From an uncultured Candidatus Saccharibacteria bacterium (GTDB taxonomy: Bacteria; Patescibacteriota; Minisyncoccia; UBA6257; 2-01-FULL-56-20), in the NCBI GenBank assembly GCA_965231155.1, contig OZ246418.1, positions 174,850-238,849 of the forward strand: 64,000 nucleotides of DNA, given 5' to 3'. Every line of letters starts with the position of its first letter. Positions within the stretch are counted from its first letter, which is position 1. Position numbers and translations under genes: made by a program. Positions 20,157-41,712 of the stretch are shown one piece after another. The notes beneath the pieces are model-generated. The model had not been told where the DNA came from, did no database searches, and was given only the letters and a program-made list of their open reading frames with translations.

Positions 20157-20159
20157 ATA

Positions 20160-21182: not shown

Positions 21183-21259
21183 GCCCCGAATATTACCCAA
21201 ATTTCCGAGAAACGTCAAAGACAAGGAATTCCGGAAGAATATCAGAACGCCCTATTTTT

Positions 21260-27203: not shown

Positions 27204-28208
27204 CTACTTTATATGCTTCTCTGTCGGTGCGTAGTAGATGATCTGACTGCCTAAATTCTCAAAAGCAAAGGGAACATAGAGAAGATCTGAGAGTACCGCT
27301 CTTATCTTCGGCTGATCTTCCGGACGAACAAAAAATAACATAAATCCACCACCGCCAGCGCCAAGTAGCTTCCCACCTAGCGCACCAGCCTTCCGGCCTC
27401 GCTCATAAATCTCGTCGATACTGTCATTAGAGATTCTCTTGGTCAGCTGACGCTTAATCTGCCAGGCTTCGTCAAGTAAACGCCCGAAATCGTCCAGGCC
27501 ACCCTGACTATTTAAAATATCGATTGCCTGATCAACTGTCTCTCTCATTCGTTGTAACTCGCTTGTCTTCAAAGGGGTGCTCTTTATCTGCTCTTCGGCA
27601 ATTTCAGAAGCCATTCTTGTAAATCCAGTGAAGAAAAGCATAAGGTGATCCTGAAACGACTGTAGACGAGGAGCCGACAAAATAATTGGAGAAACCGTAA
27701 TTTTCTGAGGACCTCCGAACACAATTTTATTCAGACCACCAAAAGCCGCGACTACCTGATCCTGAGATCCCACATGTTCTTTTATTCGTTCTTGTTCAAC
27801 CTGTATAGCATCTAGGGCGAGTTGCCTCTTTGTAACCATTCTTCCCTGCAAGGCGTGAAGGGCGTGGAGTAATCCGACAGTGAAGGATGAGCTGGAACCC
27901 AATCCGGAACGGGCGGGGAGATCAGCATTGTGATGTATTTCTAAATCTTCAACCTGATTCAGAAATTTCATCGCCTCCCGAACTGCGGGATGTTCAACAT
28001 CATGAACCGACTTGGCCATCTGAATCTTCGACCAAACAATTCTGATATTGCTATCAAAAAATGGTGGAAGGTGACGACAGCTAATATAACAGTATTTGTT
28101 AATAGAAGTAGACAAAACTGCTCCATCTCCATTGTTCTCATACCAGACAGGATAGTCTGTACCGCCACCGAAGAATGAGATTCGAAAAGGGGTTCTGCTA
28201 ATAATCAT
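27204..28208 (-). CDS. GHMP-family sugar kinase (second HddA-like heptose-7-P kinase)
   Basis: PFRISFFGGGTDYP and PARSGLGSSSSFTVGLLHALH motifs. Confidence 0.75.
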   Translation of the reverse strand: MIISRTPFRISFFGGGTDYPVWYENNGDGAVLSTSINKYCYISCRHLPPFFDSNIRIVWSKIQMAKSVHDVEHPAVREAMKFLNQVEDLEIHHNADLPARSGLGSSSSFTVGLLHALHALQGRMVTKRQLALDAIQVEQERIKEHVGSQDQVVAAFGGLNKIVFGGPQKITVSPIILSAPRLQSFQDHLMLFFTGFTRMASEIAEEQIKSTPLKTSELQRMRETVDQAIDILNSQGGLDDFGRLLDEAWQIKRQLTKRISNDSIDEIYERGRKAGALGGKLLGAGGGGFMLFFVRPEDQPKIRAVLSDLLYVPFAFENLGSQIIYYAPTEKHIK

Positions 28209-28213
28209 AGTAA

Positions 28214-28882
28214 TTAATGACCAATCAAGACATCCTGGACCAAGGGCACGTTCTTAAGGTCTGCAAAAGTCCCTATCACCTGATCGGCTTCTTTCAGCTT
28301 ATCTTCGCCTAGGGTTGAAGAAATTGCAATGCAATACGCACCGGCGGCCTTAGCCGACTGGATACCTAACGGAGCGTTTTCTACTACAATACATTCATTA
28401 ATTGGAATATTAAGCTCAAACGCAGCACGCTCATAAGGATCGGGAAATGGTTTATTTCTCTCTGTTTTTTCTCCAGTAATAACGGCCTGAAATTGTTCAA
28501 GAAAACCCGTAGGAACAGACTGAGATAATCGAGAGTAAAGGCCAGCACTGACAATGGCTATTGGCACTTTCTTTTCGGCTAGCTCCCCGATAAACGTCTG
28601 GACACCCTGGTAAAAACGGAAAGAATGTCTGGCTATATAAGAAGCTTCTTTCTTTTTTACAATGTCAGCGTAGTCTACACCACGCACGCCATACCTCTCG
28701 CAAAGCAATCGAGCCACCTCGGCCAACTTCATTCCTTCGAGTAGAAAGTATTCTTCTTTCTCTATATCGGCACCGACCTCATGAAGAACTTGCTTCCAGG
28801 CTAAAAAATTATCTTCCATGGTGTCGGCTAAGACTCCATCAAAGTCAAAAAGGATGGCTCGGTAACGACCGAGAGTAGTCAT
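28214..28882 (-). CDS. HAD-superfamily hydrolase (beta-phosphoglucomutase-like)
   Basis: LFDFDGVLADT motif I and a C-terminal HAD motif. Confidence 0.8.
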   Translation of the reverse strand: MTTLGRYRAILFDFDGVLADTMEDNFLAWKQVLHEVGADIEKEEYFLLEGMKLAEVARLLCERYGVRGVDYADIVKKKEASYIARHSFRFYQGVQTFIGELAEKKVPIAIVSAGLYSRLSQSVPTGFLEQFQAVITGEKTERNKPFPDPYERAAFELNIPINECIVVENAPLGIQSAKAAGAYCIAISSTLGEDKLKEADQVIGTFADLKNVPLVQDVLIGH

Positions 28883-28891: not shown

Positions 28892-29401
28892 TTACTTGGT
28901 AGCCAACTCAAGAACCGCTTTCATCCAAGGCCCCATATAACGGTAGTGGGGTGAAGTGACAATGTTTTTATCTACAACTGCAGGCGCGTCCACAAACTCG
29001 GCACCGGCATTATTAATATCATCCTTCAGGCTGTAGTAACCACTGATTTTTCTTCCTTTAACTACTTTGGCCGAAATCAGAAGCTGAGCGCCATGACAGA
29101 TGCAGGCAATCACCTTACCTTTGGAGTCCCAGAGGTTGATAAAATCAATAACTTTTTGATTCTGTCGGATGTACTCCATCGCGCGAGCGCCTCCCGGAAT
29201 AACCAGAATATCATATTCATCAGGGTTAAGATTCTCGGTGGTAATATGCACCGGTATCTTAAGGCCAGCCACACCAAACGTTTCTTTGCCATCCTCAGTT
29301 GCCACCACCACTTCGTAGCCGTCTTCCTGTAAACGGTAGTAAGGATAAATGAATTCTGGGTCCTGCACGAACTTTCCGGTAATAATAAGGGCTTTTTTCA
29401 T
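28892..29401 (-). CDS. DJ-1/PfpI family protein
   Basis: ILVIPGG and a CHGAQLL nucleophile-elbow cysteine. Confidence 0.85.
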   Translation of the reverse strand: MKKALIITGKFVQDPEFIYPYYRLQEDGYEVVVATEDGKETFGVAGLKIPVHITTENLNPDEYDILVIPGGARAMEYIRQNQKVIDFINLWDSKGKVIACICHGAQLLISAKVVKGRKISGYYSLKDDINNAGAEFVDAPAVVDKNIVTSPHYRYMGPWMKAVLELATK

Positions 29402-29409
29402 AATTAGAT

Positions 29410-30174
29410 TTAGTATTTACGAATGAAAAGAATCTTCAAACCGTTGGTTAGCGTAACATTATCCGAAACTCCAAGCAACTCTTCACCATGGAAAACATCA
29501 GCATGACCGAAAAGAACATTGCCCGACTGATCTCTAATCTCTCCTTCTAAAAGCACTACGGCGCTATCAGCTACGCGGGGTGATAAGTTTTTAAAATGAT
29601 CAATATCCCTAACTTCAACTACCGCCAATTCGCATTCAGCAAAAACTCTCTTTTCTTCTGCCGTGGAAGCTTCATAAAAAGAAGGCATGACCGAAGGATT
29701 TCGTGGTTGGACGTGTTTGCCACTTTCATAACGACGCCCAGCGCGACCATAGATATCATCAAATCGAACCAAGTTTTTCTTGTTGACTGGCGTCTCAGTT
29801 TCTAAGAGAAAAATCCCACGTGGAGAAATTGCTTCGGTGGAATGGAAAACTCCCTTCTCGATAACTGCACCATCTCCCGGCTTGAGAGAAATTTTTTCAT
29901 CTAGAGTAGAGACAGCTCCCTCTCCGCCGAGTAGAACCATCGAAGTTTTCTTGGCTGGATGACAGTGCATTGAAGTCCGATGTCCTGGTTTGATAAAAAG
30001 AAGCCAAGAATCTACTCTGTCATTTTTGAAGATCGAATACTCGTGACCCCAAGGCTTCTCAATAACTACTGCCGAGTAGTCAAAGGGATCTTCAATAATG
30101 TCGATGGAAGGATCGGTTGGGAGGGAGGACAGCACTGTTTCATCCTTCTGAGAAAGATTAACTCTCTTGATCAT
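29410..30174 (-). CDS. cupin-domain protein, type II phosphomannose-isomerase-like
   Basis: PWGHE...GHRTSMHCHP...EKGVFH cupin metal-binding pattern. Confidence 0.55.
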   Translation of the reverse strand: MIKRVNLSQKDETVLSSLPTDPSIDIIEDPFDYSAVVIEKPWGHEYSIFKNDRVDSWLLFIKPGHRTSMHCHPAKKTSMVLLGGEGAVSTLDEKISLKPGDGAVIEKGVFHSTEAISPRGIFLLETETPVNKKNLVRFDDIYGRAGRRYESGKHVQPRNPSVMPSFYEASTAEEKRVFAECELAVVEVRDIDHFKNLSPRVADSAVVLLEGEIRDQSGNVLFGHADVFHGEELLGVSDNVTLTNGLKILFIRKY

Positions 30175-30184: not shown

Positions 30185-31093
30185 TTATTTCCCCTCAGCT
30201 ACAATATTTCTGACTTTTTGACAGATCTTTTCTATGCTCGGAGGAAGATTGTCGAGATGAGGAGCAAAACCAGCTGATCGCTCCTCAAGCGCCAGAACCT
30301 GAACAGGCTGGCGAGTAGCTTCTTCAATGTCAAACGCAATACATTTAACCACACCGTTCTCAAAATCTCCGTCCATAACCAACCCGCCATGTTTCGAAGT
30401 TGCCAACGCCGACTTCATTCGTTCCTCAACCACGAAAGGCTTTAACCAAAGAAGATGCACTATGTTACAAGTAATGCCTTCAGCCGCCAGTATCTTTGCG
30501 GCTTCAACGGCATTTAATCTTGTAGAAGAGATTGGGAATAAGGTGATGTCAGCATTTGGGTGAATAATGTCAGGCAACTCATAATCAATCGGAAAAGCTC
30601 GACGATGTTCGCTGACATACATTGGATCATCGTGGGTCATAAAGTGATCCCAAGCAATCTGGTACTCGTTCGGCGTGATCGGAGCGATAACTGGAATGCC
30701 AGGCATGCGCGTAAAAATACTGTGGTGACTATTTGAAGCCACTGGACCGATTGCTCCCTCCATAGCGATGGAACGAACAAAAACTGGACATGGCACACCC
30801 CAAACCTCCTTGGATTTAGCTGCATAGTTAATAACGGTAGCTGCGTTGTACCACTGGAAACCCTGATAACGAACAATATAAATTGGGCGACGACCGGCCA
30901 AAGCTAAGCCAACAGCTACTCCACCATTAGCGACATCAGACATCGGAAGTTCGATCAATCCTTCCTCCTGGGTAAGCTCTGGAACCGTACCACCAACCCA
31001 ACCAACAGCTGTGAGACACTGTCCCAAAGCCACCCCATTCTGGTTTTTCAAATGCTGTCGTGTGATCTCTCTTATTTTTTCAGCAGAAGTCAT
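30185..31093 (-). CDS. TPP-dependent dehydrogenase E1 component beta subunit-like (transketolase-like pyrimidine-binding + C-terminal domain)
   Basis: E1-beta/transketolase-C-like architecture. Start set to the internal Met MTSAEK, which overlaps the alpha-subunit stop (ATGA). Confidence 0.7.
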   Translation of the reverse strand: MTSAEKIREITRQHLKNQNGVALGQCLTAVGWVGGTVPELTQEEGLIELPMSDVANGGVAVGLALAGRRPIYIVRYQGFQWYNAATVINYAAKSKEVWGVPCPVFVRSIAMEGAIGPVASNSHHSIFTRMPGIPVIAPITPNEYQIAWDHFMTHDDPMYVSEHRRAFPIDYELPDIIHPNADITLFPISSTRLNAVEAAKILAAEGITCNIVHLLWLKPFVVEERMKSALATSKHGGLVMDGDFENGVVKCIAFDIEEATRQPVQVLALEERSAGFAPHLDNLPPSIEKICQKVRNIVAEGK

Positions 31094-31998
31094 GATGTTT
31101 TTTGTGCGGTTTCTGGTAAGGCAGCCGTCCACCAACTATCGACTGTTTGTTGTGCCTCTTTTTCAATCTCGATCATTTCTTTCTCATAACCCAGTCGGAC
31201 TAGTTCTTTCTTTACCAAATCGAATCGATTCCACTCTGGCTCAGAGTCCTTACCCGTACCTGCATGCCAGAGATGTCGTACCGTCTGAATATTTATAAAA
31301 GCAGGGAGTTGGTTTTGCAACTTACGGACGTGATGCATGATAAGCCAAGGATCATCAGTAATGTCAACGGCTGGCAAGCCGAAAGAAGAAGCGACATCCA
31401 CCATCTTCCAATTACGACGTACTTCGATTTTTGTAAGTACTGAGAGCTGATTATCCTCGCAAACGAATAATATTGGCAATTTTTTCTGCACAGCGTAACC
31501 AAGGGAAGCCAAAGCATAATCCTCTTCAGCGGCAGCGTCACCCATAATACAGAGAGTCTTCTTTCCTGAACCTTGGGCGAACCCAGTAGCGATAGGCACC
31601 TGATCGCCAAGAAGTCCACTGTGTCCGAACATACTAATTTCAGGAGAATGAATAGAAGCTGAACCACCCATACCACCAGCACAACCAGTTGGTTTATGGA
31701 GCAACTCATCAACAAGACCGGCTGGTTTACCACCGAATGCTAAATAGACATCATGTCCGCGATGCTGAGCGAAAATAGCTGGCTTCGGGAAGGCCACCGC
31801 TAAAGCCGAAGAGATTGATTCCTGTCCGACCGAAAGATAAATCGGCATCTTGATATGTTTCTCGTCGTAAGCCTTCTTGACCCAAAACTCAAACGCCCGT
31901 GAAACACACATCTTTTTGAACACCTCCAAAGACTCTTCTTTGGTAAACTCTTTAGAAACCTCAGGGACTATATTCAGTTCGCTTGATCGTTCATGCAT
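31090..31998 (-). CDS. TPP-dependent dehydrogenase E1 component alpha subunit-like
   Basis: IMGDAAAEEDYALASLGYAVQKKLPILFVCEDNQ, an E1-alpha TPP-binding motif. Confidence 0.7.
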   Translation of the reverse strand: MHERSSELNIVPEVSKEFTKEESLEVFKKMCVSRAFEFWVKKAYDEKHIKMPIYLSVGQESISSALAVAFPKPAIFAQHRGHDVYLAFGGKPAGLVDELLHKPTGCAGGMGGSASIHSPEISMFGHSGLLGDQVPIATGFAQGSGKKTLCIMGDAAAEEDYALASLGYAVQKKLPILFVCEDNQLSVLTKIEVRRNWKMVDVASSFGLPAVDITDDPWLIMHHVRKLQNQLPAFINIQTVRHLWHAGTGKDSEPEWNRFDLVKKELVRLGYEKEMIEIEKEAQQTVDSWWTAALPETAQKTS

Positions 31999-32003: not shown

Positions 32004-32594
32004 TTAAAACTGTTTTGGTAAGTGCGACTTCATTATATCAAATGCATTTATTCCTAAATGAGGTAAGGCTCTGAGCAAAAGCAAAACTGCATCCCATTCA
32101 TCGGTCTCTGCTTTTAATGTTTCCTCAACCCACTCGGCAAAAGGCTTCTCGAACTGTTCAACTTGTTCAGAATCATCCAAACTACCACCGCCCTTATACT
32201 CGCATCCCTTAGCTAAAAAACAATAGAATTTAGCGTGGGAACTCCGAGAGTCGTAATGACCTGAACCAAGAGCAATAATCTCTTCGGCCTCATATCCAGT
32301 TTCTTCTTTGAGTTCTCTTTTCGCTACCGCCTCTGGCGACTCGCTGGAGAAATCGAGCACGCCCGCAGGCAACTCTTCCATAATCTCCTCCGATCCCTGT
32401 TTGAACTGACGAACCATCACGACATTCCCCTCTTTAGTGATTGGAAGGATAACTGACCAAAAAGGGCGTTCGAGGAAATAGAAGTCTGTTTCTTTACCAG
32501 TGTGATCGAGAAACTTTTGAACCGCCAGCTTCTTGCCATAGCCTTCAGCTAGGATGGTAGGCTCCCCTATTTTTTTCCATTTGGTGATGGCCAT
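32004..32594 (-). CDS. NUDIX hydrolase
   Basis: Canonical Nudix box ...SESPEAVAKRELKEETGY. Confidence 0.85.
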   Translation of the reverse strand: MAITKWKKIGEPTILAEGYGKKLAVQKFLDHTGKETDFYFLERPFWSVILPITKEGNVVMVRQFKQGSEEIMEELPAGVLDFSSESPEAVAKRELKEETGYEAEEIIALGSGHYDSRSSHAKFYCFLAKGCEYKGGGSLDDSEQVEQFEKPFAEWVEETLKAETDEWDAVLLLLRALPHLGINAFDIMKSHLPKQF

Positions 32595-32675: not shown

Positions 32676-33179
32676 ATGCAAGTAAATTTTAATCAAATTG
32701 AAGATATCCGAAAACGTCATCCGGGACAGAAACTGGTCTTCTGTGCCGGAGGTTTCGACCTCACGCATGGTGGTCATGTCATATTCTTTGAAGACTGCAA
32801 AAAACTCGGCGACATCCTAGTCGTCGGCATTGCCTCAGACGCTACCCGAAGACAGGAGAGAGGCCCGGCCCGGCCCGTTCTTAATGAACACTTACGTATT
32901 AGAACGGTTGATGCCCTAAAACCAGTGGACTACTCTTTTATCATCTCGCGACTCGCTGAATCACATGAGGATAAGATGACTCCCATTGACTCAATCCTCG
33001 AACGACTCCAACCCGATGTTTGGGTGGTAAATGAAGATGCCTATGACATTCCCCGACGGGAACAGTTGGCAAAAAAAATGGGGTTCGAACTTGTTGTTCT
33101 GAAACGTTGGTGTCCTCCTGAATTTGAAAATATTTCCACCACTGCGATTATCGAAAAAATAAAAAGATTGCCAGATTAA
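32676..33179 (+). CDS. cytidylyltransferase-like nucleotidyltransferase (HIGH family)
   Basis: LVFCAGGFDLTHGGHVIFFEDCKKLGDILVV; paralogous in fold to 15229..15705. Confidence 0.75.
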   Translation: MQVNFNQIEDIRKRHPGQKLVFCAGGFDLTHGGHVIFFEDCKKLGDILVVGIASDATRRQERGPARPVLNEHLRIRTVDALKPVDYSFIISRLAESHEDKMTPIDSILERLQPDVWVVNEDAYDIPRREQLAKKMGFELVVLKRWCPPEFENISTTAIIEKIKRLPD

Positions 33180-33212
33180 AAAAAGGGAGGCTACGTGTGT
33201 AGACCTCCCATA
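33178..33212 (-). terminator. intrinsic terminator of the radical SAM gene
   Basis: GGGAGG...CCTCCC hairpin followed on the minus strand by TTTTTTT. Confidence 0.7.
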
Positions 33213-33217
33213 GTGAT

Positions 33218-34768
33218 TCAACTCTTCTCCTCGAGGAGCTTCCGCTTCAGATCGCGAACTCCATCGACCCAACGATCGATCGAAGTCAGGGCAACCTGCC
33301 CAAACTTCGGGTCAGCCAGAATGCTGCTCCGGAACTCCGCACGCTCGAAGTAACTCACGTGAGCCCAATCTCGGAAGGCCAGGATCTCAGCGGGCGTGAG
33401 CGCATCACCCGCATAGTACGGCTCAGACTCGTAGGCGTACTGGGAGTGTCCGATCCACCCAGGACCACCGGGACGAGCCGGCAAAGGATAGCCTGAAGCC
33501 ACTCCCTGACGGTAGAGCTCCGACCCCGGAAGAGCCTGCGTGCAGTACATATTCACGAACCGCGTGTTCAACTGACACGCCAGTTCATATGTCTCCTGCA
33601 GGCTCTCTCGAGTATCTCCGGGCAACCCGAAGATGTAGTTGGCACCGACATAGGCACCCGCGGCGTGAATCTGATCGACCACGCGTTGGATGTCGCCCTC
33701 ACCGAACTTCTTGTCCTGTCCGGAGCGGACTTTCGAGTTGGCGGCTTCGATACCCAACCCGAACCAGTAGATGCCTGCTCGACGAGCCGCCTCCAGAAAG
33801 CGCGGCTTGCAGGTGTCGACTCGAGCGTAACACCAGAAGTCCAACGAATCCCCGAAACGTTCGGCGATACCATTGGCGATGGTGATGACATGCTCGGCGT
33901 TCAGCGCGAACATCTCGTCGGGAATCTTGAAGTACTTGATTCCGTAGGTCTCGACGAGATGCGTCACCTCCTCCACAAAAAACTCGGGACGGAGGAAACG
34001 GTAGCTGTTACGCCTGACATTGCCCCGATCCATGAGACTCTCTCCAGCCCGAAAGGGGGCCTGGATATTGCAGAAGTCACAGTGGAAGGGACAGCCCTCG
34101 ACCGAATAGGGATTGGCATACCCCGCCCGTTCCGCGTAGGGACGGTAAAAGGTGTGCCAGCCGTCGGCATGATACACCCGCGGATCCATGAGAGCCCAGG
34201 CCTCCGGAGAGACCCTTTCCTCATTCAGATCGAGCAGCGGCGCCGGTGGGTTGTGAATCGTCTGGCCATCCTTGCGGTGCCAGAGACTACGAACTTTGTC
34301 CAGCTCGCCACCACCCTTGAACGCCTGGACCAACTCATAGGCGGTGATTGGTCCTTCGCCGTCGCAGACGAAATCGATCGGCTCCTCCGCGAGCGTTCTC
34401 GCCGGAAGCGCTGCCGGATGAGTTCCCGAGAAAACAATGGGAATCTCCGGACACAGATCCTTGATCGCCTGAGCGTAGGCCCGGGCAGCCGGCATGGTGT
34501 GAGTGCTGGACGACGGATTGAACCCGTAGACCGGCAACCAAACCAATCGCGGCTTTGCATCTTTGACCACCCGAGCCATCAACTCGGATGTGTACCCGAG
34601 AATCGTAGCATCGAGCAATCCCACGCCGAGACCTCGACGCAGAAGGTAGCTGGCCATAAACCGTGCCTTGGCAGGCGGCTCGGTATGGTGTTCGCGCGCA
34701 AAGCCTTGATAGACCTGCACGAGATTGCTAGGAATGACGAAAAGAACGTCGAGCTTCCTGCTTTCCAT
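33218..34768 (-). CDS. B12-binding radical SAM protein (class B, cobalamin-dependent radical SAM; putative sugar C-methyltransferase/epimerase)
   Basis: N-terminal Rossmann-like B12-binding region (DVLFVIPS...) and CPFHCDFC (Cx3Cx2C) radical-SAM cluster motif; 516 aa. GC is about 58-60%, against about 46% in the flanks. GGAG RBS 7 nt upstream of the start. Confidence 0.75.
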   Translation of the reverse strand: MESRKLDVLFVIPSNLVQVYQGFAREHHTEPPAKARFMASYLLRRGLGVGLLDATILGYTSELMARVVKDAKPRLVWLPVYGFNPSSSTHTMPAARAYAQAIKDLCPEIPIVFSGTHPAALPARTLAEEPIDFVCDGEGPITAYELVQAFKGGGELDKVRSLWHRKDGQTIHNPPAPLLDLNEERVSPEAWALMDPRVYHADGWHTFYRPYAERAGYANPYSVEGCPFHCDFCNIQAPFRAGESLMDRGNVRRNSYRFLRPEFFVEEVTHLVETYGIKYFKIPDEMFALNAEHVITIANGIAERFGDSLDFWCYARVDTCKPRFLEAARRAGIYWFGLGIEAANSKVRSGQDKKFGEGDIQRVVDQIHAAGAYVGANYIFGLPGDTRESLQETYELACQLNTRFVNMYCTQALPGSELYRQGVASGYPLPARPGGPGWIGHSQYAYESEPYYAGDALTPAEILAFRDWAHVSYFERAEFRSSILADPKFGQVALTSIDRWVDGVRDLKRKLLEEKS

Positions 34769-34883
34769 GAGTATTCTCCTCTCTTAGATAGTACGAACTT
34801 TTCATACTTTGCATCAAAGAAGAATAGTTGTCAATTTAGAGAAGACAACCTTCTAGATAGGAAAGGAACGTCAAAAAATATTC

Positions 34884-35819
34884 CTAAATATTCGAGAACT
34901 GGTTTCGCTTGATGATCTGATAGCCCTTAATCAACTCAGCGATACCATCAGGAAGAGAGTGCTCCGTTTTATAACCGGTTTTTTCAATCTTCTCATTGCT
35001 AATAATATAGTTCCGCTTATCAGGATCTTCGCCAATCGATGATTCAATAAACACAAATTTAGGAAGTTGTTTTTTAATCTCTTCACATAGCTCGGCCTTG
35101 CTCAAATTGGCCTCGCTCAAGCCAACGTTATAAACATTATTTTTCATGGTTTCAAAATTCTGCATCCCATGCATAAAAGCACGTACTACATCGCGGACAT
35201 GCACATAATTCCGTTTGAAGTGTGGCTCAAAAAGGATCACCGCTCGATCGTAAACTGCTCGATAGACAAAGTCATTTACTAGAAGATCAAGACGCATTCG
35301 CGGACTCGTTCCAAAAACAGTAGCCAGACGAAAAATAATGACTTCGCCAGCCGCCAACAACTTCTTCTCAGTTTCCACCTTCAACTGACCATACAACGAA
35401 ACCGGTTCGAGCGGTGAATTCTCATCACAAAACGCTACGCCTTCGGCCATTCGACCGTAGCCACTATTGGTATTAGGGAAAAGAATCTTCTGCCCAGAAA
35501 CACGTAGTTTGATAATTAGTTCGATCGCTTCAAGATTAATAGTACGCGCAGCAATTGGGTCTTTGTCACAGAGAGGAGCTCCCACGAGACACGCTAAAGG
35601 AATAATAAAATCCTTATCTTTCATTAGTTTGCTCATAAGCACCTCATCACGTACATCACCCCGAATAACCGAAAGCGTCTTCCAGTTGCAAACATCAAGT
35701 AGTGAAGCCTGATTGTACAAAAAATTATCGACAACAGTGACCTCGTGTCCAGCTCGTAAAAGTTCTGGAACCAAGACCGAACCAATATATCCGGCACCGC
35801 CGGTGACAAGTATTTTCAT
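34884..35819 (-). CDS. NAD-dependent epimerase/dehydratase (SDR)
   Basis: MKILVTGGAGYIGS and YGQLK (YxxxK). Confidence 0.8.
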   Translation of the reverse strand: MKILVTGGAGYIGSVLVPELLRAGHEVTVVDNFLYNQASLLDVCNWKTLSVIRGDVRDEVLMSKLMKDKDFIIPLACLVGAPLCDKDPIAARTINLEAIELIIKLRVSGQKILFPNTNSGYGRMAEGVAFCDENSPLEPVSLYGQLKVETEKKLLAAGEVIIFRLATVFGTSPRMRLDLLVNDFVYRAVYDRAVILFEPHFKRNYVHVRDVVRAFMHGMQNFETMKNNVYNVGLSEANLSKAELCEEIKKQLPKFVFIESSIGEDPDKRNYIISNEKIEKTGYKTEHSLPDGIAELIKGYQIIKRNQFSNI

Positions 35820-35822: not shown

Positions 35823-36338
35823 TTAATTTACATATTTCCCGGCCTCATCTCGCTGGGAGAGAATCGGTTGTTTTATTGGCCACCAAATCTTAAATCGTGG
35901 GTCATCATAGCGAATACTAAACTGTCCCTGAGGATCATAATAAGCCGACTGCTTATAGTGAAAGATGATCTCATCAGAAAGAGCCAGGTGACCATTCGCA
36001 AACTTAGGAGGCACTAAAACCTGCCAACGGTTTGTTTCGGAAAGGGTAAATGATTGCCACTGTCCATACTGAGGCGACGACTCGTCAGCATTCAAAACCA
36101 CGAAATAAAATCGGCCTCGCATACAGCTAATCAACTTCCAAGTTCCGGAATCTCCATGTAATCCACGAAGGACATGTTTACTTGAAGTTGAGTAATCATC
36201 CTGAAGAAAATCAACTGTAATGCCGTTTTCGGCAAAAAGTTTTTTACTGTAGGTTTCAGTATAAGTTCCTCGAAAATCCTCAAAGATTTCTGGCTTCACA
36301 AGAATCACTCCATCTAGTTTTGTTTTTTCAAACTGCAT
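35823..36338 (-). CDS. dTDP-4-dehydrorhamnose 3,5-epimerase-like (RmlC cupin)
   Basis: KLDGVILVKPEIFEDFRGTYTETY...LRGLHGD RmlC pattern. Start set to MQFEK to avoid overlap with the upstream gene. Confidence 0.75.
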   Translation of the reverse strand: MQFEKTKLDGVILVKPEIFEDFRGTYTETYSKKLFAENGITVDFLQDDYSTSSKHVLRGLHGDSGTWKLISCMRGRFYFVVLNADESSPQYGQWQSFTLSETNRWQVLVPPKFANGHLALSDEIIFHYKQSAYYDPQGQFSIRYDDPRFKIWWPIKQPILSQRDEAGKYVN

Positions 36339-36369
36339 AGGGGTAAATGAATGGTTTTTTATTATGCTA

Positions 36370-37302
36370 CTATCGTGGGCGCCAAACAACAAGGGTGTAG
36401 CCTTCGAAATAATTCCCCACATAAGTCCGACTCGTCTTCTCGATAGTTAACTTACCAGCTGCTTCCAGCTCTTTTAATTTAGTCAAAAATCCAGAAAGGT
36501 AGTTCCTCTGCTCGTAGTAGATTTTCGACCAATGATCTAAGGGGTTTGTTTCGCTTAAAACCTCTGGGAGAGGCTCAATATGACAACATATCTCTGGTTT
36601 CTTTGCGAGGAGATATTCAATAAACTTGTCGTGCTTCTTACCTACCTGTTCCAGCGCCGCCAGAGTATAGACCATGCTATGAGGCTCTATCTCTACGTTA
36701 TAATCTGGTTCAAAGAAATTGAAATTTCTACCTACCACTCCCGGCAGAATACCCTTCTGATTCATCTCTAGCAAGATCCCCTGAGAAGCGGTAGCCCAGT
36801 CGAGCCCATAAAGATGGGCCTTAGGATTTATCTTTCTGGCCTGGAGCAAGTGATGACCTGTACCACACCCAAATTCGTAGATAGCCGACATCTCTTTCCC
36901 ATACTGCTTAAGAAGCCATTGCACATTTAACCCAAGAAGATTGTAAGAAAAATTCGGACTAAGGGTTTTGACAATTTTCCCCTGCCAGGCCGCATACACC
37001 TGTTGTTTTTCAAAATAACCGGGAACCAAAGGGTTTTCCTTGTCAGTCTTCAGGGCCTCTAGATTACTTCCCCAACCATTTTCCCATATTGGCAGTCGAC
37101 CCTCATGAGAGGGGTCAGTTTTGGGATCTTTGAGCATGCTCTGAATCCAAACTTCCTGTTCTTGCCACTCAGACTCACTCAGATCACGATACTGCAGCTG
37201 AAGTTTATTGACCTGATCCTCGAGTTCTTGATCAAGACTTACTTTGAATAAATTTTCAAAATCAGTTGTGGTAATAGTTTTTGGACCAGGAAGTTCGTTC
37301 AT
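36370..37302 (-). CDS. class I SAM-dependent methyltransferase with about 140-aa N-terminal extension
   Basis: YEFGCGTGHHLL motif I. Confidence 0.7.
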   Translation of the reverse strand: MNELPGPKTITTTDFENLFKVSLDQELEDQVNKLQLQYRDLSESEWQEQEVWIQSMLKDPKTDPSHEGRLPIWENGWGSNLEALKTDKENPLVPGYFEKQQVYAAWQGKIVKTLSPNFSYNLLGLNVQWLLKQYGKEMSAIYEFGCGTGHHLLQARKINPKAHLYGLDWATASQGILLEMNQKGILPGVVGRNFNFFEPDYNVEIEPHSMVYTLAALEQVGKKHDKFIEYLLAKKPEICCHIEPLPEVLSETNPLDHWSKIYYEQRNYLSGFLTKLKELEAAGKLTIEKTSRTYVGNYFEGYTLVVWRPR

Positions 37303-37381: not shown

Positions 37382-37975
37382 TTAGATCAACCCAGCAACC
37401 TTCATCTCGCTATCCACAATCTCACACCACGTGTGATAAACCAACTCATGAACTTCTTGAATACGAGCAGTTTCTTCAGAAGGAACAACGATCGCTACGT
37501 CAACAGAACTTTCCAAGCTAGCACCCTTCTGACCAGTGAGCGCGATGACTTTAATCCCTTTAGCTTTTGCTACTGCTATCGTCTTGAGGACATTCTTGGA
37601 CTGACCACTAGTCGTAAAAGCAACAAGCACATCACCTGTTGAGCCAAGCGCCTCTAGCTGGCGACTAAACACACTTTCAAAGTCGTAGTCATTCCCAATA
37701 GCAGTGAGCGTAGAACTATCGACAGTCAGGGACATTCCGGGCAATGGCCGACGATCACCTTTGAACCGGCATAGCCACTCGCCAGAAAAATGCTGGCTAT
37801 CGGCCGCCGAACCACCATTTCCACACGCAAAAAGCCGATGGTTGTCTTTCAATGCTTCGAACAAGACTTCTGCCCCTTTTTCAATTTGTGGTTTTATCTG
37901 AAGAAGGCTGTCCTCGATTGCCTTCTGGTGTCGAGCGAAGGTAGCGTTGATTATCTCTGAGGCATTGTTCAGCAT
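37382..37975 (-). CDS. phosphoheptose isomerase (SIS), second copy
   Basis: LFACGNGGSAADSQHF and AFTTSGQSKN. Start set to the internal Met MLNNASE, giving the canonical ~197-aa GmhA length. Confidence 0.75.
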   Translation of the reverse strand: MLNNASEIINATFARHQKAIEDSLLQIKPQIEKGAEVLFEALKDNHRLFACGNGGSAADSQHFSGEWLCRFKGDRRPLPGMSLTVDSSTLTAIGNDYDFESVFSRQLEALGSTGDVLVAFTTSGQSKNVLKTIAVAKAKGIKVIALTGQKGASLESSVDVAIVVPSEETARIQEVHELVYHTWCEIVDSEMKVAGLI

Positions 37976-38048
37976 AAAAAGGTTGAAGTGATTTTTTCCA
38001 ATTGTATACGAAAGTGATTCATAAGGAAAATAAGCCTCTTCCCTAACC

Positions 38049-39095
38049 CTAAGAAAGTCCCAATTGGCGAAAGATCTCTCTGAAACGCGCCTCGTAGGTG
38101 TGTTCCCGAATCGTTCTTTCATATCCAGCCTTGGCAATCGCCTCCCGTTCGTCGTCATGAGCGAGATAGTATTTTATCTTTTCTATATAGTCATCGATGT
38201 TACTGAAAAGAACCATCTCTTTGTCAGGCACGTAAAAATTTCCTAGATCATCAGCTGGGCCAGTAAGGAGAAACCCACCACAAGCCGGAATTTCGAAATG
38301 TCTCCCTTTCACTTGTGGAATACCCCGCTCAAGCCATGAGCGAAAATTATAGTACAAATTGAAATTAGGTCTAATCTTTTCTCGGGAACGACTATAGAAA
38401 ATCCGTCCTAAAGAATTTTTATTGAAGAATCCTGGCGGAGGATTCAGCGCCAAGCTGATTTTGCTTACCCCGAAAAGATGGATCATCTCCTCATCACTGG
38501 CCCGACGTGCTTCTGGCCAACCGCCGCCAAAAACCTCCACTGGAATTCCTGCCTTCTTCAATGCATCAACAATCTGGCCACGACCCTTACTCCAACCTCC
38601 CACAAATGTGACCTCTGGTCTCCGCTCTCCCGACTGAAGTTCACTTGGTTTATACACCAAGGTATTAGCTCCCCACTGTGAACGAATGACATTCGACTGA
38701 CCATATTTTTTGTACCGCTCAGCCATCCAAGAATAGGTGGTGATGACCGCTGAGAAGTGTGGCGCCCAGATCCGAGAGTAGTTCCAGAACCGCCAGCTAT
38801 CATCAGAAAACCAAGCGACACTTTTTGTTTTTTCTTTTATCTTATCCAAAATCCTCGGTTCAAACTCGTCGGTATACATAAAGGCAAAAAACAAATCGGG
38901 CTTAAACTCCTCAATCGTTACTAGAAGCTCCTCATTAAATTTTTCTTTGCCTACTTCTAAAATCCGATCAAAAGGAAAAAACCGCACCTCGTGAGGCATG
39001 GCTTTAAGTTGTAAGTAGAAATTATTATATTCAAAACTTTTTCCCCTCTTTGGATTGTACTGGTCATGTTCCAAACCAGCGAAAAGAATCTTCAT
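38049..39095 (-). CDS. CgeB-family / DUF3880-like glycosyltransferase (paralog of 25132..26214)
   Basis: KGRHFEIPACGGFLL...YYLAHDDEREAIAKAGYERTIREHT. Confidence 0.65.
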   Translation of the reverse strand: MKILFAGLEHDQYNPKRGKSFEYNNFYLQLKAMPHEVRFFPFDRILEVGKEKFNEELLVTIEEFKPDLFFAFMYTDEFEPRILDKIKEKTKSVAWFSDDSWRFWNYSRIWAPHFSAVITTYSWMAERYKKYGQSNVIRSQWGANTLVYKPSELQSGERRPEVTFVGGWSKGRGQIVDALKKAGIPVEVFGGGWPEARRASDEEMIHLFGVSKISLALNPPPGFFNKNSLGRIFYSRSREKIRPNFNLYYNFRSWLERGIPQVKGRHFEIPACGGFLLTGPADDLGNFYVPDKEMVLFSNIDDYIEKIKYYLAHDDEREAIAKAGYERTIREHTYEARFREIFRQLGLS

Positions 39096-39108: not shown

Positions 39109-40086
<978 letters not shown>

Positions 40087-40164
40087 TCAAATATATCTAA
40101 AGAGAAGATGACACCCCATCCTAAAATTGACTACTAGTATATTTTATTTTATAAAAATACACAG

Positions 40165-40227
40165 TACCAACTCCCAAAGAGTTGGATTGATTAACCCTTA
40201 GCCCTCCCCCAAAGGGAGAAAGGAGTG
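40165..40227 (+). repeat. 63-nt conserved leader, copy 1, upstream of the ORF at 40231
   Basis: GTACCAACTCCCAAAGAGTTGGATTGATTAACCCTTAGCCCTCCCCCAAAGGGAGAAAGGAGT. Hairpin 1 is CCAACTC-CCAAA-GAGTTGG; hairpin 2 is CTCCC-CCAAA-GGGAG, overlapping the SD GGGAGAAAGGAG. Identical to 40923..40985. Confidence 0.9.
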
Positions 40228-40230
40228 ACA

Positions 40231-40818
40231 ATGGAACAGGGAATCCCCGTGAGATTCTCGCCGTGGATGCGACTCAGTGCGGTAGAAGCTGCCACCAAGG
40301 CTGGCAGCAGAAACCAAATGACTGAAACCTCTCTCTGGGTCTACTGGGTTCTGACCCGAGGAGGAAAAACACGGCTGGATCTCTTCGACGTTGGGAGAGA
40401 TCTCTTCTACAGTAATCCGTGGAGAGGTGCTCCTCCACAACCAAAGAAGAATCCCGTACTTAGTCGAGTGCTGGTCGTCGGCACAAACGCCGAAGTCAGT
40501 ACTATCCTCCAAGGAAACCCGCTGGCTCGAAAGTCTCCTAGCTATCAGGCATACAAGAAGGCTTTCGATCAGGGCATAAGACGTCTCAAAGTCGACAGTG
40601 TCGGAACCCTGGAAGGCTTCTGGCCTGTCTTCATGGGCGTTGATGATTTTCTTGGAAGGCCGGACGACCGGAGTTTGCCTTCTCTGGTAGTCACAACTGG
40701 ATTCATGAGAAACTACCCTCGCATAGGGGGTGAGACTCTTGAAGTTGCGGATCGACTCAAAGACATCTGCAAACTCTGCAACGTTCCAATTGAATTTATC
40801 CCTTCTTTTTGTTCGTAA
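40231..40818 (+). CDS. hypothetical protein (GC-rich, no family recognised)
   Basis: 196-aa ORF (track uses a GTG start at 40225; the ATG at 40231 has better SD spacing). High GC, own terminator. Confidence 0.5.
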   Translation: MEQGIPVRFSPWMRLSAVEAATKAGSRNQMTETSLWVYWVLTRGGKTRLDLFDVGRDLFYSNPWRGAPPQPKKNPVLSRVLVVGTNAEVSTILQGNPLARKSPSYQAYKKAFDQGIRRLKVDSVGTLEGFWPVFMGVDDFLGRPDDRSLPSLVVTTGFMRNYPRIGGETLEVADRLKDICKLCNVPIEFIPSFCS

Positions 40819-40850
40819 GCCGAAGATTTAATCTATCTCGGCTTTTTTTA
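40818..40850 (+). terminator. intrinsic terminator after the hypothetical ORF
   Basis: AGCCGA...TCGGCT stem followed by TTTTTTT. Confidence 0.6.
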
Positions 40851-40922
40851 TTAATCACGAAAAGCAGTTGCTCCATTTTCATAATTTGACACTTTATATA
40901 TATTATGTTATTAACCTATCGG

Positions 40923-40985
40923 TACCAACTCCCAAAGAGTTGGATTGATTAACCCTTAGCCCTCCCCCAAAGGGAGAAAGGAGTC
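40923..40985 (+). repeat. 63-nt conserved leader, copy 2, upstream of the NUDIX ORF
   Basis: 63/63 identity with 40165..40227; ends 4 nt before the ATG at 40990. Confidence 0.9.
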
Positions 40986-40989
40986 CGAG

Positions 40990-41634
40990 ATGACAAGCTC
41001 ACAAGAACGGTTCCTGGCTCTGGCCAAGGAGCCAAGGTTCAAGGGCTGGCGCATGGTCGGCGAACCGGAACTGGGAGCAAAGATTCCCTTTTTCGGCCAG
41101 GAACTGAGGTACAAGCTCGAAACCGGAAACGGAACCGAGGAGTACGTTTCCCTCCTCAGGCATTTTGGCTGGGTCGTGGTCTTCGGCGTCAACACTGAAG
41201 GCATGGTGGTGACACTGTGCCAGTGGAAGCCTGGCGTGAACTGCGCCTCTTGGGAGCTCCCTCCGGGAGGAATCGGTCGCGTCAAAACCGATCTCTCTTC
41301 GGATGAGCTTCTCAGGAAAACCCAGGAAGCGTATACTCGCGAAACCGGATACGCTGGCGGCACTTGGAACTACCTCGGTCACGTCATGATCGAGAGCGGC
41401 AAGTATCGCGGCGCAACGGTCGACGACCACGGACTGAAGGCTCACATGTACCTCGCAACTGGTCTGGAGAAGGGAGCGGAAGCTCGCAATCCCAACCCGA
41501 ACGAGATCATGGAAACGATTCTCGTCCCCTTGGACGAGTTCCGCGAGATCGTGTTGAGCCCGAATCGACTCTTCAAGGAAGCCTCGGCTCTGCCTTGCGC
41601 TCTTCTTGCTTTGTCGAAACTCGGCAGGTTGTAG
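40990..41634 (+). CDS. NUDIX hydrolase, ADP-ribose pyrophosphatase (NudF)-like with degenerate Nudix box
   Basis: WELPPGGIGRVKTDLSSDELLRKTQEAYTRETGY (Nudix-box-like, RETGY in place of EExGU), and NudF-like N- and C-terminal layout. GC-rich. Confidence 0.55.
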   Translation: MTSSQERFLALAKEPRFKGWRMVGEPELGAKIPFFGQELRYKLETGNGTEEYVSLLRHFGWVVVFGVNTEGMVVTLCQWKPGVNCASWELPPGGIGRVKTDLSSDELLRKTQEAYTRETGYAGGTWNYLGHVMIESGKYRGATVDDHGLKAHMYLATGLEKGAEARNPNPNEIMETILVPLDEFREIVLSPNRLFKEASALPCALLALSKLGRL

Positions 41635-41652
41635 CAAATCTGCCTTTATGCA

Positions 41653-41689
41653 AAGCCTTAGGAGAAATTTTCTCCTAAGGCTTTTTTAT
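41653..41689 (+). terminator. rho-independent terminator after the NUDIX gene (palindromic, possibly bidirectional with gmd)
   Basis: Perfect 16-bp palindrome AAGCCTTAGGAGAAAA/TTTTCTCCTAAGGCTT followed by TTTTTAT. Confidence 0.8.
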
Positions 41690-41712
41690 ATATTTCTCAC
41701 AGAAAGACTCTC

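Follow-up and report, generated by a model that had tools for sequence, protein, structure and literature searches.

Gene content of the locus

The stretch of DNA analysed here, 64,000 nucleotides long and referred to as the window, contains a Wzx/Wzy glycan cluster of a Patescibacteria (Parcubacteria/Paceibacterota) genome, which appears to be built around heptose activation. The cluster includes a gene encoding a radical SAM protein, designated rSAM; the gene, its signals and its neighbours are as follows.

33218-34768, minus strand: rSAM, ORF of 516 aa with an ATG start, B12-binding and radical SAM domains
33220-33218, minus strand: TGA stop codon of rSAM
34776-34779, minus strand: Shine-Dalgarno motif GGAG, 7 nt 5' of the ATG at 34768
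33178-33209, minus strand: intrinsic-terminator-like hairpin (GGGAGG..CCUCCC, 33209-33185) followed by T7 (33184-33178)
34884-35819, minus strand: Cj1427-like SDR, 311 aa, candidate NDP-heptose C4-dehydrogenase matching PDB 6VO6/6VO8; directly upstream of rSAM in the same operon
35823-36422, minus strand: RmlC-like cupin 3,5-epimerase (TIGR01221, 151 bits against a cut-off of 155.75)
32676-33179, plus strand: RfaE-domain-II-like (CTP_transf_like) nucleotidyltransferase (PF01467; TIGR02199, 84 bits, below the cut-off of 181.5)
32004-32594, minus strand: NUDIX hydrolase, NudE/NudK-like (PF00293), first gene of the next operon
30185-31998, minus strand: TPP-dependent E1 alpha (31090-31998) and E1 beta (30185-31135) (PF00676, PF02779)
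27204-28208, minus strand: GHMP kinase, heptose-kinase-like (PDB heptose kinases 3K85, 4USK/4USM, 4N3O)
28214-28882, minus strand: HAD phosphatase beside the GHMP kinase
37382-38158, minus strand: SIS-domain protein, candidate GmhA-like sedoheptulose-7-P isomerase of a second heptose set (PF13580, 89.6 bits; PF01380, 36.2 bits)

The hairpin at 33178-33209 closes an operon of methyltransferase-like, RmlC-like, Cj1427-like and rSAM genes, and the RfaE-II-like gene is convergent with rSAM. RNA folding gave -17.7 kcal/mol for this hairpin (z = -3.25; 0 of 200 shuffles equalled it), which a simple terminator scanner missed because of a bulge, and the Shine-Dalgarno motif lies in an AT-rich intergenic spacer of 115 nt (34769-34883, GC 0.37). 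An earlier sequence-only reading had assigned to the gene its own GGAG motif and a strong terminator of the form GGGAGG...CCTCCC + T7; both signals were recovered. A 415-codon ORF at 33665-34912, in the codon-aligned reverse frame of rSAM, was considered as a hidden antisense gene and rejected: it is open because rSAM has no TTA or CTA codon and a single TCA, and the same stop-free antisense run appeared in 57% of synonymous shuffles preserving codon usage.

The neighbourhood named in that reading (a nucleotidyltransferase, SDRs, an RmlC-like epimerase and an E1 alpha/beta pair) was found as described. The Cj1427-like SDR is 54% identical to PDB 6VO6/6VO8 over 309 of its 311 residues (365 bits, E 3e-108); we take 6VO6 to be Cj1427, a GDP-heptose C4-dehydrogenase (reported by Huddleston et al. 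2020). The C4-dehydrogenase function of Cj1427 is described in PMC10680097. The RmlC-like protein matches both dTDP RmlC (131 bits) and the GDP-4-keto-heptose 3,5-epimerases 8DB5/8DCO (about 111 bits), and the PDB entries that score highest with the GHMP kinase are heptose kinases (113-121 bits). The NUDIX protein scores 42.9 bits against NudE and 26.5 bits against NudK, both below cut-off, and PDH E1 models match the E1 alpha/beta pair only below cut-off, the pair being a candidate enzyme for a two-carbon branch or chain extension. Further genes of the locus encode Gmd and Fcl-like SDRs. As for the two class-I methyltransferases counted in the sequence-only reading, the one at 22095-22784 exceeds Pfam cut-offs, while the match at 36370-37302 is sub-threshold (21.9 bits against 27).

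GmhA-like, HddA-like, GmhB-like and nucleotidyltransferase domain types are each present twice, and the kinases have heptose kinases as their best PDB hits; the curated HddA, HddC and RfaE models matched far below cut-off, so that heptose is a likely rather than a proven substrate. The window contains no ColD-like gene, though most loci of the rSAM family carry one, and its pathway therefore differs from the typical cassette. A phosphonate cluster of the Fom3 type was rejected, since no PEP mutase occurs among the annotated neighbours of rSAM and the TPP enzyme belongs to the E1 alpha/beta type rather than to the phosphonopyruvate decarboxylases.

Domain architecture, fold and family of the radical SAM protein

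Class B radical SAM enzymes catalyse alkylations and rearrangements that are chemically demanding. Judged by its sequence, rSAM is an enzyme of class B architecture belonging to an uncharacterised family. The 516-aa protein with a B12-binding N-domain and a CPFHCDFC motif, proposed earlier, is encoded by an ORF with two Pfam domains above cut-off: B12-binding PF02310 at residues 31-146 (38.7 bits, cut-off 32.1) and Radical_SAM PF04055 at residues 224-397 (42.5 bits, cut-off 29.5), the N-terminal Rossmann domain being fused to the radical SAM core as in class B. The motif occupies residues 226-233 (C226-x3-C230-x2-C233), and the alignment of 39 rSAM homologues indicated that its three cysteines are invariant. 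The AlphaFold2 model (pLDDT 94.1) matched radical SAM structures in a Foldseek search with a probability of 1.00, and the nearest folds were those of TsrM, AprD4, MgmA, OxsB, TokK and CysS, all of which, other than AprD4, are cobalamin-dependent radical SAM enzymes. The family profile aligns through the N-terminal domain with TsrM (31-405), OxsB (36-377), TokK and CysS; its alignment with AprD4 is restricted to the radical SAM core (positions 212-425). The use of cobalamin by rSAM is likely.

An NCBIfam scan found no family whose curated cut-off rSAM attains. Membership was rejected for BchE (TIGR02026, 103.4 bits against 481.35), HpnJ (TIGR03471, 101.5 bits against 577.6), the ladderane-lipid "ladder" family (67 bits against 360) and AprD4 (NF033070, 31.7 bits against 500, residues 224-426 only). 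The class B methyltransferase models compared were six, namely PhpK (TIGR04479), Sden_1168 (NF038361), KedN5 (NF033712), HpnR (TIGR04367), Trp 2-C-MT (TIGR04428) and MCR Gln MT (TIGR04014), with GenK and Fom3 having no model in the set; scores ranged from 27 to 68 bits against cut-offs of 360-700. The sequence-only reading had suggested a B12-binding radical SAM enzyme of sugar modification, and it withstood this search: both domains were found and none of the curated non-sugar families (BchE, HpnJ, lipid) was reached. Literature searches linking radical SAM or cobalamin to heptose, O-antigen, HddA or Patescibacteria revealed no relevant characterised homologue. The family comprises 307 clusters at 50% identity and at least 541 species, and the closest homologue of rSAM (P0002) is 75% identical to it. 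In JGI, several homologues carry the labels "anaerobic Mg-protoporphyrin IX monomethyl ester cyclase" or "YgiQ".

BchE and HpnJ, which share the two-domain architecture of rSAM and are the best-scoring curated families, are both non-methylating class B enzymes, and HpnJ acts on a sugar moiety (PMC12931638). With OxsB among the structural neighbours, they would suit a cobalamin-dependent, non-methylating rearrangement or cyclisation of the HpnJ, OxsB or BchE type, in which a ring would be contracted or a carbocycle made from a heptose-derived sugar, leading, with the TPP enzyme, to a carbocyclic or higher-carbon sugar. This seems quite improbable, given that the scores of both lie 4-6 fold under the equivalog cut-offs and that methyltransfer is the commonest class B outcome (PMC12931638); the host does not photosynthesise, and hopanoid genes were not found.

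Neighbourhood, composition and distribution of the gene

Linkage was counted in the 35 family loci with complete 10-kb flanks. A homologue of the GHMP kinase, typically adjoining rSAM (median identity 57%), was found in 32 of them, as was a TPP enzyme of any type (E1ab, split transketolase or ALS/YerE-like); a Cj1427-like SDR occurs in 30, a ColD/RfbH-like 3-dehydratase in 28, an HddC-like nucleotidyltransferase in 26 and an Fcl-like SDR in 25. The TPP enzyme is ALS/YerE-like in 20 of 80 loci and E1ab or split transketolase elsewhere, and the PLP enzyme of most family loci is of the C3-dehydratase type, with His replacing the catalytic Lys. Azospirillum plasmids carry the arrangement rSAM-kinase-NUDIX or rSAM-SDR-kinase with a transketolase. 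The sugar-nucleotide context claimed in the sequence-only reading is well founded in this family-wide linkage of kinase, Cj1427-like, ColD-like and TPP genes, in the match to 6VO6 immediately upstream and in the two putative heptose-activation sets. Because the neighbourhood is so consistent (kinase, Cj1427-like SDR, ColD-like enzyme, ThDP carboligase), only a few NDP-heptose intermediates come into question as the substrate; the enzymatic synthesis of such intermediates is already possible (PMC10680097), so the function of rSAM is directly testable.

Linkage of this kind weighs against the suggestion that rSAM has nothing to do with the glycan and lies in the locus by chance, for example as a BchE-type cyclase or a lipid-modifying enzyme. 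The JGI cyclase and "YgiQ" names of homologues and the first place of BchE among the sub-threshold NCBIfam matches would suit such a placement; against them stand the BchE score itself (103 bits against 481), the same sugar-nucleotide genes around rSAM in at least 30 of the 35 fully flanked loci from many phyla, the operon shared with the Cj1427-like SDR and the absence of tetrapyrrole and hopanoid genes from about 44 scanned window ORFs and from the neighbours in related loci, and we consider a chance placement scarcely credible.

The neighbourhood also bears on a chemistry resembling that of AprD4, which is a sugar 1,2-diol dehydratase without cobalamin binding (PMC12931638), so that a similar fold can lack cobalamin. 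AprD4 of apramycin biosynthesis (6FD2) is the best PDB match of the family both by sequence profile (71.8 bits) and by TM-score (0.70/0.78), it acts on a sugar, and it has a reductase partner, AprD3, to which the SDR would correspond. By this analogy, the N-terminal Rossmann domain would be a relic of a B12 domain, and rSAM would be a cobalamin-independent dehydratase removing a hydroxyl of a heptose (for instance one of the C6/C7 glycol or of a diol in the ring); the resulting carbonyl would be reduced by the adjacent SDR, as by AprD3 for AprD4, or attacked by the TPP enzyme for chain extension. Tight linkage to SDR and TPP carboligase genes is in agreement with such a reaction, and in the window, which has no ColD-like 3-dehydratase, a second deoxygenation route would fill a gap. 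However, the AprD4 match is confined to the core, whereas the N-domain aligns with genuine cobalamin binders such as TsrM and OxsB and exceeds the Pfam B12 cut-off; the NF033070 score is far below its threshold, and rSAM and the ColD-like dehydratase are present together in 28 of the 35 loci. An AprD4-like reaction is therefore unlikely.

The composition of rSAM differs sharply from that of its surroundings. Its GC content is 0.587 and its GC3 0.691, compared with a GC content of 0.448 in the 8-kb flanks and 0.457 in the whole window; the 59 other window ORFs have a mean GC3 of 0.464 (sd 0.069; z = 3.3 for rSAM) and 24 genes of the cluster a GC3 of 0.425 (z = 7.4). The shift begins and ends at the boundaries of the ORF, and TTA and CTA account for none of its 43 Leu codons, compared with 56 of 219 in nine neighbouring genes. 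In members outside Patescibacteria, the gene mostly matches the GC content of the host (median GC3 difference +0.016), which indicates that the protein itself does not force a high GC.

The gene is variably present as well. The five Patescibacteria loci with the most similar Cj1427-like gene (L112, L114, L116, L117 and L118; 78-81% identity) have no rSAM within 10 kb, despite the same locus architecture, and this absence from syntenic loci marks rSAM as accessory and xenologous. Other relatives carry it (the P0002 contig, L084, L003, L083 and L085-L093), and the carriers use the same slot beside the RfaE-II-like gene, to which rSAM is adjacent in the P0002 contig, L083, L084, L003, L085-L088, L091 and L092; the NUDIX hydrolase usually accompanies it. 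The expectations of a composition shift (GC3 0.69 against 0.43) and of variable presence across relatives, both raised in the sequence-only reading, are thus confirmed by these data; its description of an "isolated GC-rich insert" is right as to composition, but the gene is not isolated, as in relatives it always occurs with the RfaE-II-like gene and usually with the NUDIX gene. Comparison with L084 revealed unequal identities, of 52-63% for rSAM, the RfaE-II-like protein, NUDIX and GHMP and of 72-81% for Wzy, Gmd, SDRs and a glycosyltransferase, which shows that the locus is a mosaic. The flanks of rSAM contain no meaningful direct or inverted repeats, the cluster contains no mobility genes (transposase/integrase), and the tRNAs closest to the gene lie at 1956 and 50641; insertion by a mobile element was rejected, there being no flanking repeats, target-site duplications or transposase/integrase nearby.

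A recent insertion is not the sole reading of the GC excess, since the offset recurs in relatives of about 60-68% identity (GC3 +0.264 in L091, +0.166 in L084, +0.130 in L085 and +0.074 in L003). The excess could be a stable property of a long-resident gene, resulting from its amino acids and a retained codon bias, with loss of the gene in some lineages. In keeping with this, every one of the eight members of the clade of at least 50% identity has a raised GC at codon positions 1+2 (+0.03 to +0.08), divergence between L091 and the window is similar for flanking genes (59-73%) and rSAM (68%), flanking repeats and mobility genes were not found, and the slot beside the RfaE-II-like gene is identical in all carriers. 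However, in GC-poor hosts outside the clade (L023, L024, L028) the gene is fully adapted (GC 0.35-0.41), so that the protein does not by itself require a high GC; the lack of rSAM in five syntenic loci and the mosaic identities with L084 are also at odds with long residence, which we regard as rather improbable.

A possible role in the tailoring of nucleotide-activated heptoses

On balance, we favour the reading in which rSAM is a class B tailoring enzyme, an optional add-on to the NDP-heptose pathway of a Wzx/Wzy locus, acquired via horizontal transfer or allelic exchange. Its substrate is probably an NDP-heptose intermediate. In the proposed pathway, sedoheptulose-7-P would be isomerised by the SIS-domain protein, phosphorylated at C1 by the GHMP kinase, dephosphorylated at C7 by the HAD phosphatase and nucleotidylated by the RfaE-II-like or an HddC-like enzyme; the Cj1427-like SDR encoded directly upstream of rSAM would oxidise C4, and the 4-keto sugar may then be reworked by epimerase, reductase and TPP enzymes, with the addition of a branch or extension of the chain. 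The [4Fe-4S] cluster of rSAM with SAM would generate a 5'-deoxyadenosyl radical that abstracts hydrogen from an unactivated sugar carbon, the nucleotide serving as a binding handle. With methylcobalamin as the donor, C-methylation would follow the logic of GenK and Fom3, for example from HO-CH2 to HO-CH(CH3) at C7. Methylation is the likeliest single outcome, its chances being somewhat short of even; methyltransferases make up most of the B12 radical SAM enzymes characterised, few class B enzymes are characterised, and none is known for heptoses of the cell surface or glycans (PMC12931638). The gene itself probably came into the mosaic glycan locus of this lineage through horizontal transfer or allelic exchange.

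Comparison with characterised systems places rSAM among several partial analogues. GenK, GenD1 and Fom3 share with rSAM the N-terminal B12-binding Rossmann domain and the CxxxCxxC radical SAM core, and their target, like the one expected for rSAM, is an unactivated sp3 carbon in a sugar-like molecule. They are cobalamin-dependent C-methyltransferases of aminoglycoside sugars or of cytidylylated 2-hydroxyethylphosphonate. As with Fom3, the expected substrate of rSAM has a nucleotide handle; the nucleotidyltransferase is encoded next door, and the NUDIX enzyme could remove the handle. No orthology to the three is detectable, however (the models of the related P-methyltransferase and of KedN5 give 43-68 bits, with cut-offs of 575-700), and they belong to antibiotic clusters, unlike rSAM, which lies in a heptose locus of primary surface-glycan (Wzx/Wzy) biosynthesis.

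The GDP-heptose toolbox of Campylobacter jejuni (GmhA, HddA, GmhB, HddC, Cj1427, C3/C5 epimerases, a ColD-like C3-dehydratase and C4-reductases) has its likeness in the SIS, GHMP, HAD, nucleotidyltransferase, Cj1427-like, RmlC-like, Gmd and Fcl-like genes of the window, but the 20 C. jejuni enzymes described include no radical SAM or TPP enzyme (PMC10680097, PMC10440746), both of which are core to the rSAM cassette. ThDP enzymes of the YerE/ErwE and E1 alpha/beta types, which transfer acyl branches onto 3-deoxy-4-keto nucleotide sugars (yersiniose, erwiniose, caryophyllose), occur, as in the rSAM cassettes, with a C4-keto-forming SDR and a 3-dehydratase (PMC9306805). Their pathways start from CDP-glucose and have neither a radical SAM enzyme nor a heptose-type kinase, whereas the precursor here appears to be a heptose. 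An erwiniose skeleton made by C7-methylation of a 3,6-dideoxy-heptose by rSAM was considered and rejected: erwiniose is formed with a longer ThDP donor on a CDP-hexose and without radical SAM (PMC9306805).

Tentatively, rSAM, the Cj1427-like SDR, the GHMP kinase and the ThDP carboligase may together make an undescribed C-methylated, C-branched or chain-extended heptose-derived sugar, such as an 8-deoxy-octose or a branched nonose, which would be displayed on the surface, with the nucleotidyltransferase and NUDIX hydrolase attaching and removing a handle as in the case of Fom3. If so, such a sugar would be found on the surfaces of Patescibacteria, Nitrospira, Omnitrophota, Simkania, Azospirillum and others, and its formation would involve a cobalamin-dependent radical reaction without precedent for nucleotide-activated heptoses in primary glycan biosynthesis. 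The rSAM gene offers one way into a family that numbers about 300 clusters (50% identity) in at least 541 species. Patescibacteria depend on contact with their hosts, and to our knowledge their surface chemistry is essentially unknown; the presence of rSAM would imply a need for scavenged cobalamin in these bacteria, and a sugar-tailoring gene that is accessory and exchangeable suggests that their surface glycans vary between strains.

Domain architecture and relatives of the radical SAM protein

The gene under study ends a short operon, and its reading frame is as follows:

33218-34768, - strand, radical SAM enzyme gene (ATG start, 516 aa)

Pfam searches of the protein found a B12-binding domain at residues 31-146 (38.7 bits, threshold 32.1) and a Radical_SAM domain at residues 224-397 (42.5 bits, threshold 29.5), with the CPFHCDFC motif at residues 226-233; the B12-binding radical SAM protein of 516 aa proposed in the sequence-only reading is borne out. 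The same applies to its own ribosome-binding site and terminator: GGAG lies 7 nt upstream of the ATG, and the TGA stop is followed by a GGGAGG..CCUCCC hairpin and T7 (fold -17.7 kcal/mol, z -3.25). The predicted domains place the protein in the radical SAM superfamily and, on domain criteria, in class B. The AlphaFold2 model (pLDDT 94.1, pTM 0.93) has its closest solved folds in TsrM, AprD4, MgmA, OxsB, TokK and CysS, and the fold and architecture are those of a class B radical SAM enzyme.

The protein belongs to no curated functional family and reaches the cut-off of no NCBIfam model; the methyltransferase-family models scored 27-68 bits against cut-offs of 360-700, and AprD4 32 against 500. 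The best sub-threshold matches are BchE (103 bits against 481) and HpnJ (101 against 578), which would fit a non-methylating cobalamin-dependent rearrangement, an unlikely outcome in our estimation. A dehydration of a diol in the manner of AprD4 also seems unlikely; in its favour are AprD4's position as the closest neighbour in structure and in core sequence, and the absence of ColD from the window. The family profile aligns with AprD4 over the radical SAM core only, and with TsrM, OxsB, TokK and CysS through the N-terminal domain; AprD4 binds no cobalamin (PMC12931638). The enzyme quite probably uses cobalamin, and the outcome put forward tentatively, on the model of GenK and Fom3, is C-methylation at an unactivated carbon.

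In a HMMER search covering all 1.84 billion representatives, the clusters at 50% identity numbered 307 at E<=1e-30 and 9867 at E<=1e-10, and relatives are encoded in at least 541 species representatives. Among them are relatives from Parcubacteria (64% identity), followed by many at 39-45% from Nitrospira, Alpha-, Beta- and Gammaproteobacteria, Omnitrophota, Nitrospina, Simkania, Marinibaculum pumilum and Herbaspirillum lusitanum; others are located on Azospirillum plasmids. Family members of 650-900 aa (P0133, P0137 and others) contain two matched stretches, the best of them (query about 228-514) being C-terminal. In Nitrospira loci an ALS/YerE-like ThDP enzyme is encoded between two paralogous B12 radical SAM genes, and a 2120-aa ORF comes after them (in locus L034, genes at 9974-11506, 13389-15014 and 15018-21380); two successive radical steps may take place there.

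The glycan locus and its putative heptose genes

The GroEL encoded in the window is 89% identical to a protein of a 'Patescibacteria group bacterium' and 77-81% identical to proteins of Paceibacterota, Liptonbacteria, Ryanbacteria, Wolfebacteria and Parcubacteria. A Wzx/Wzy glycan locus (about 17.3 to 44.9 kb of the window, bounded by RNase Y at 44880-46400) surrounds the radical SAM gene and encodes Wzy, two flippases, several glycosyltransferases, an Fcl-like SDR and a Gmd that exceeds its model's cut-off (TIGR01472, 513 bits). Of the two class-I methyltransferases named in the sequence-only reading, one scores above the Pfam thresholds and the other below, the sole particular of that observation not confirmed. 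The locus contains two putative heptose-activation gene sets, each composed of a SIS isomerase, GHMP kinase, HAD phosphatase and nucleotidyltransferase:

15775-17238 and 23644-25143, Wzx flippases
17294-21224, first heptose-activation set
27204-28882, 32676-33179 and 37382-38158, second heptose-activation set

The two GHMP kinases are diverged paralogues, and the best solved relatives of the one at 27204-28208 are the heptose kinases 3K85, 4USK and 4N3O. One locus with two heptose sets and two Wzx flippases points either to two glycans or to two distinct activated heptoses. Going by gene content only, the second set (SIS, GHMP, HAD and RfaE-II-like) and the dedicated, highly conserved kinase hint, speculatively, at a separate activation route for the modified heptose.

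The operon order is methyltransferase-like, RmlC-like, Cj1427-like SDR (311 aa) and radical SAM, so the radical SAM enzyme is operon-linked to a Cj1427-like dehydrogenase. The SDR (34884-35819) matches PDB 6VO6/6VO8 over its full length (365 bits, 54% identity); we take 6VO6 to be Cj1427. The function of Cj1427 has been described (PMC10680097). The RmlC-like protein is similar both to dTDP RmlC and to GDP-4-keto-heptose epimerases.

The stretch at 28892-30174 (-), with the E1 beta gene on one side and the HAD/GHMP pair on the other, encodes a 254-aa cupin and a member of the DJ-1/PfpI family that exceeds its cut-off (TIGR01382, 164 bits); both are kept in the contig of the closest homologue (P0002). 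Such proteins are unusual in an operon for sugar nucleotides, and they might conceivably act on reactive keto-sugars as a deglycase or glyoxalase. Elsewhere in the window (53482-57021, -), the catalytic domain of a class I aminoacyl-tRNA synthetase of the Ile/Val/Leu type (1179 aa) is interrupted midway by a histidine-phosphatase domain (His_Phos_1, residues 517-686, 120 bits).

Composition and variable presence of the gene

The GC-rich character assigned to the gene from sequence is confirmed: GC is 0.587 in the gene and 0.448 in its 8-kb flanks, with an abrupt shift at both ends of the ORF. Its GC3 reaches 0.691, the 59 other window ORFs averaging 0.464 (sd 0.069), with z = 7.4 against 24 cluster genes (GC3 0.425); TTA/CTA codons, which specify a quarter of leucines in the neighbouring genes, number zero, and the gene is the most deviant of the window in composition. 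The protein does not impose this high GC, because in most hosts the homologous genes match the local GC (median GC3 difference +0.016, gene GC range 0.35 to 0.71). The GC3 excess is also found in relatives with enzymes only 62-68% identical (loci L091 +0.26, L084 +0.17, L085 +0.13), and at codon positions 1 and 2 GC is raised by 0.03 to 0.08 in 8/8 members of the clade of at least 50% identity. The persistent gene-specific offset is explained by neither simple recent transfer nor amino-acid composition. Locus L003 shows an excess over its neighbours as well, the range across the radical SAM genes of these four Patescibacteria loci being 0.07-0.26.

Two other GC-rich ORFs were observed, both without a Pfam match. 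The first (40990-41634, +; GC 0.574, GC3 0.70) lies on the strand opposite to the cluster, in the interval 40063-41712 that separates the genes for the Fcl-like SDR and Gmd, and resembles the NUDIX gene at the same position in L084 (3454-4002, -; 30% identity, E 4e-15); the latter is likewise GC-rich (0.568 against about 0.44), and therefore the same gene-specific excess occurs in two lineages. The second (17876-18766, +; 296 aa, GC 0.541, GC3 0.60), within the first heptose set, contains CPFC and HAHLHFF motifs, found by eye and reminiscent of GalT/HIT-type nucleotidyltransferases or phosphorylases, and has a 36% identical homologue near the radical SAM gene in L089 (5777-6613).

The comparison of neighbourhoods showed variable presence. 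Among the loci with the closest homologues of the 311-aa SDR (78-81% identity), the five examined (L112, L114, L116, L117 and L118) represent the same locus with a Cj1427-like, ThDP, GHMP and nucleotidyltransferase core, L117 also sharing the iPGM, RNase Y, Wzy and Gmd gene order, and the radical SAM gene is absent within 10 kb of the SDR homologue in all five. It is present in L084, L003, L083, L085-L093 and the P0002 contig, where the protein is 75% identical and the order RNase Y-Wzy-...-E1ab-PfpI-HAD-GHMP-GT2-GT1 also occurs. SDR homologues of at least 74% identity far outnumber radical SAM homologues of at least 50%. Between the window and L084, identity is higher for Wzy (72%), Gmd (81%), Fcl-like SDR (80%), glycosyltransferase (78%) and the 311-aa SDR (79%), and lower for the radical SAM enzyme (62%), GHMP kinase (63%), RfaE-II-like nucleotidyltransferase (54%) and NUDIX hydrolase (52%); judged by these values, the glycan locus is a mosaic.

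The insert postulated in the sequence-only reading thus holds as regards variable presence, mosaic surroundings and foreign composition, but the gene is not a simple recent insertion, since the GC3 excess recurs in relatives, the offset at codon positions 1 and 2 is clade-wide and neither flanking repeats nor mobility genes were found for it. We conclude that it is a xenologous accessory module that glycan loci of Patescibacteria exchange, and that it originated ultimately in a GC-richer lineage. L116, which lacks the gene, encodes an 804-aa fusion of GHMP kinase, nucleotidyltransferase and methyltransferase (11035-13449) adjoining the Cj1427-like gene.

Conserved neighbourhood and the proposed reaction

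All ORFs of 80 genome loci were clustered, and genes near the radical SAM gene were counted for the 35 loci whose 10-kb flanks were complete.

Genes near the radical SAM gene (loci of 35)
GHMP kinase, 32/35, median 57% identity to that of the window, usually abutting the radical SAM gene
Any ThDP enzyme (E1 alpha/beta, split transketolase or ALS/YerE-like), 32/35
Cj1427-like SDR, 30/35
ColD/RfbH-type PLP enzyme, 28/35, catalytic Lys replaced by His, no Fe-S cysteines
HddC-like nucleotidyltransferase, 26/35
Fcl-like SDR, 25/35

Across the family, the radical SAM gene is linked to ThDP enzymes and to enzymes of heptose-type activation and deoxygenation. Within the Patescibacteria clade the RfaE-II-like nucleotidyltransferase gene always adjoins the radical SAM gene, and the NUDIX hydrolase gene usually does; the cassettes of Gram-negative hosts mostly do without SIS and HAD genes, consistent with these being borrowed from LPS-core heptose synthesis. 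On the Azospirillum lipoferum 4B plasmid AZO_p6 (L110, 2595-9757 and 12687-17379), a unit of GDP-fucose-synthase-like, radical SAM, kinase and NUDIX genes adjoins genes resembling the C. jejuni O-methyl-phosphoramidate set (cytidylyltransferase, gamma-glutamyl hydrolase, PEP-utilising kinase, methyltransferase and APS kinase).

In C. jejuni, Cj1427 and the C3-dehydratase yield GDP-3-deoxy-4-keto-heptose (PMC10680097), and a 3-deoxy-4-keto nucleotide sugar is the acceptor type of YerE-type ThDP enzymes (PMC9306805). Accordingly, the cassette reads as activation of a heptose, oxidation at C4, frequent deoxygenation at C3, attachment or extension of carbon by the ThDP enzyme, and a radical SAM step. 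The substrate of the radical SAM enzyme would rather likely be an NDP-heptose-derived intermediate. None of the B12 radical SAM enzymes in a 2026 review acts on heptoses or glycan nucleotide sugars (PMC12931638). The surroundings of the gene correspond to the C. jejuni GDP-heptose toolbox, but with a radical SAM enzyme and a ThDP carboligase, which have never been reported there; rather than a new kind of system, the radical SAM enzyme is a testable lead for enzyme discovery.
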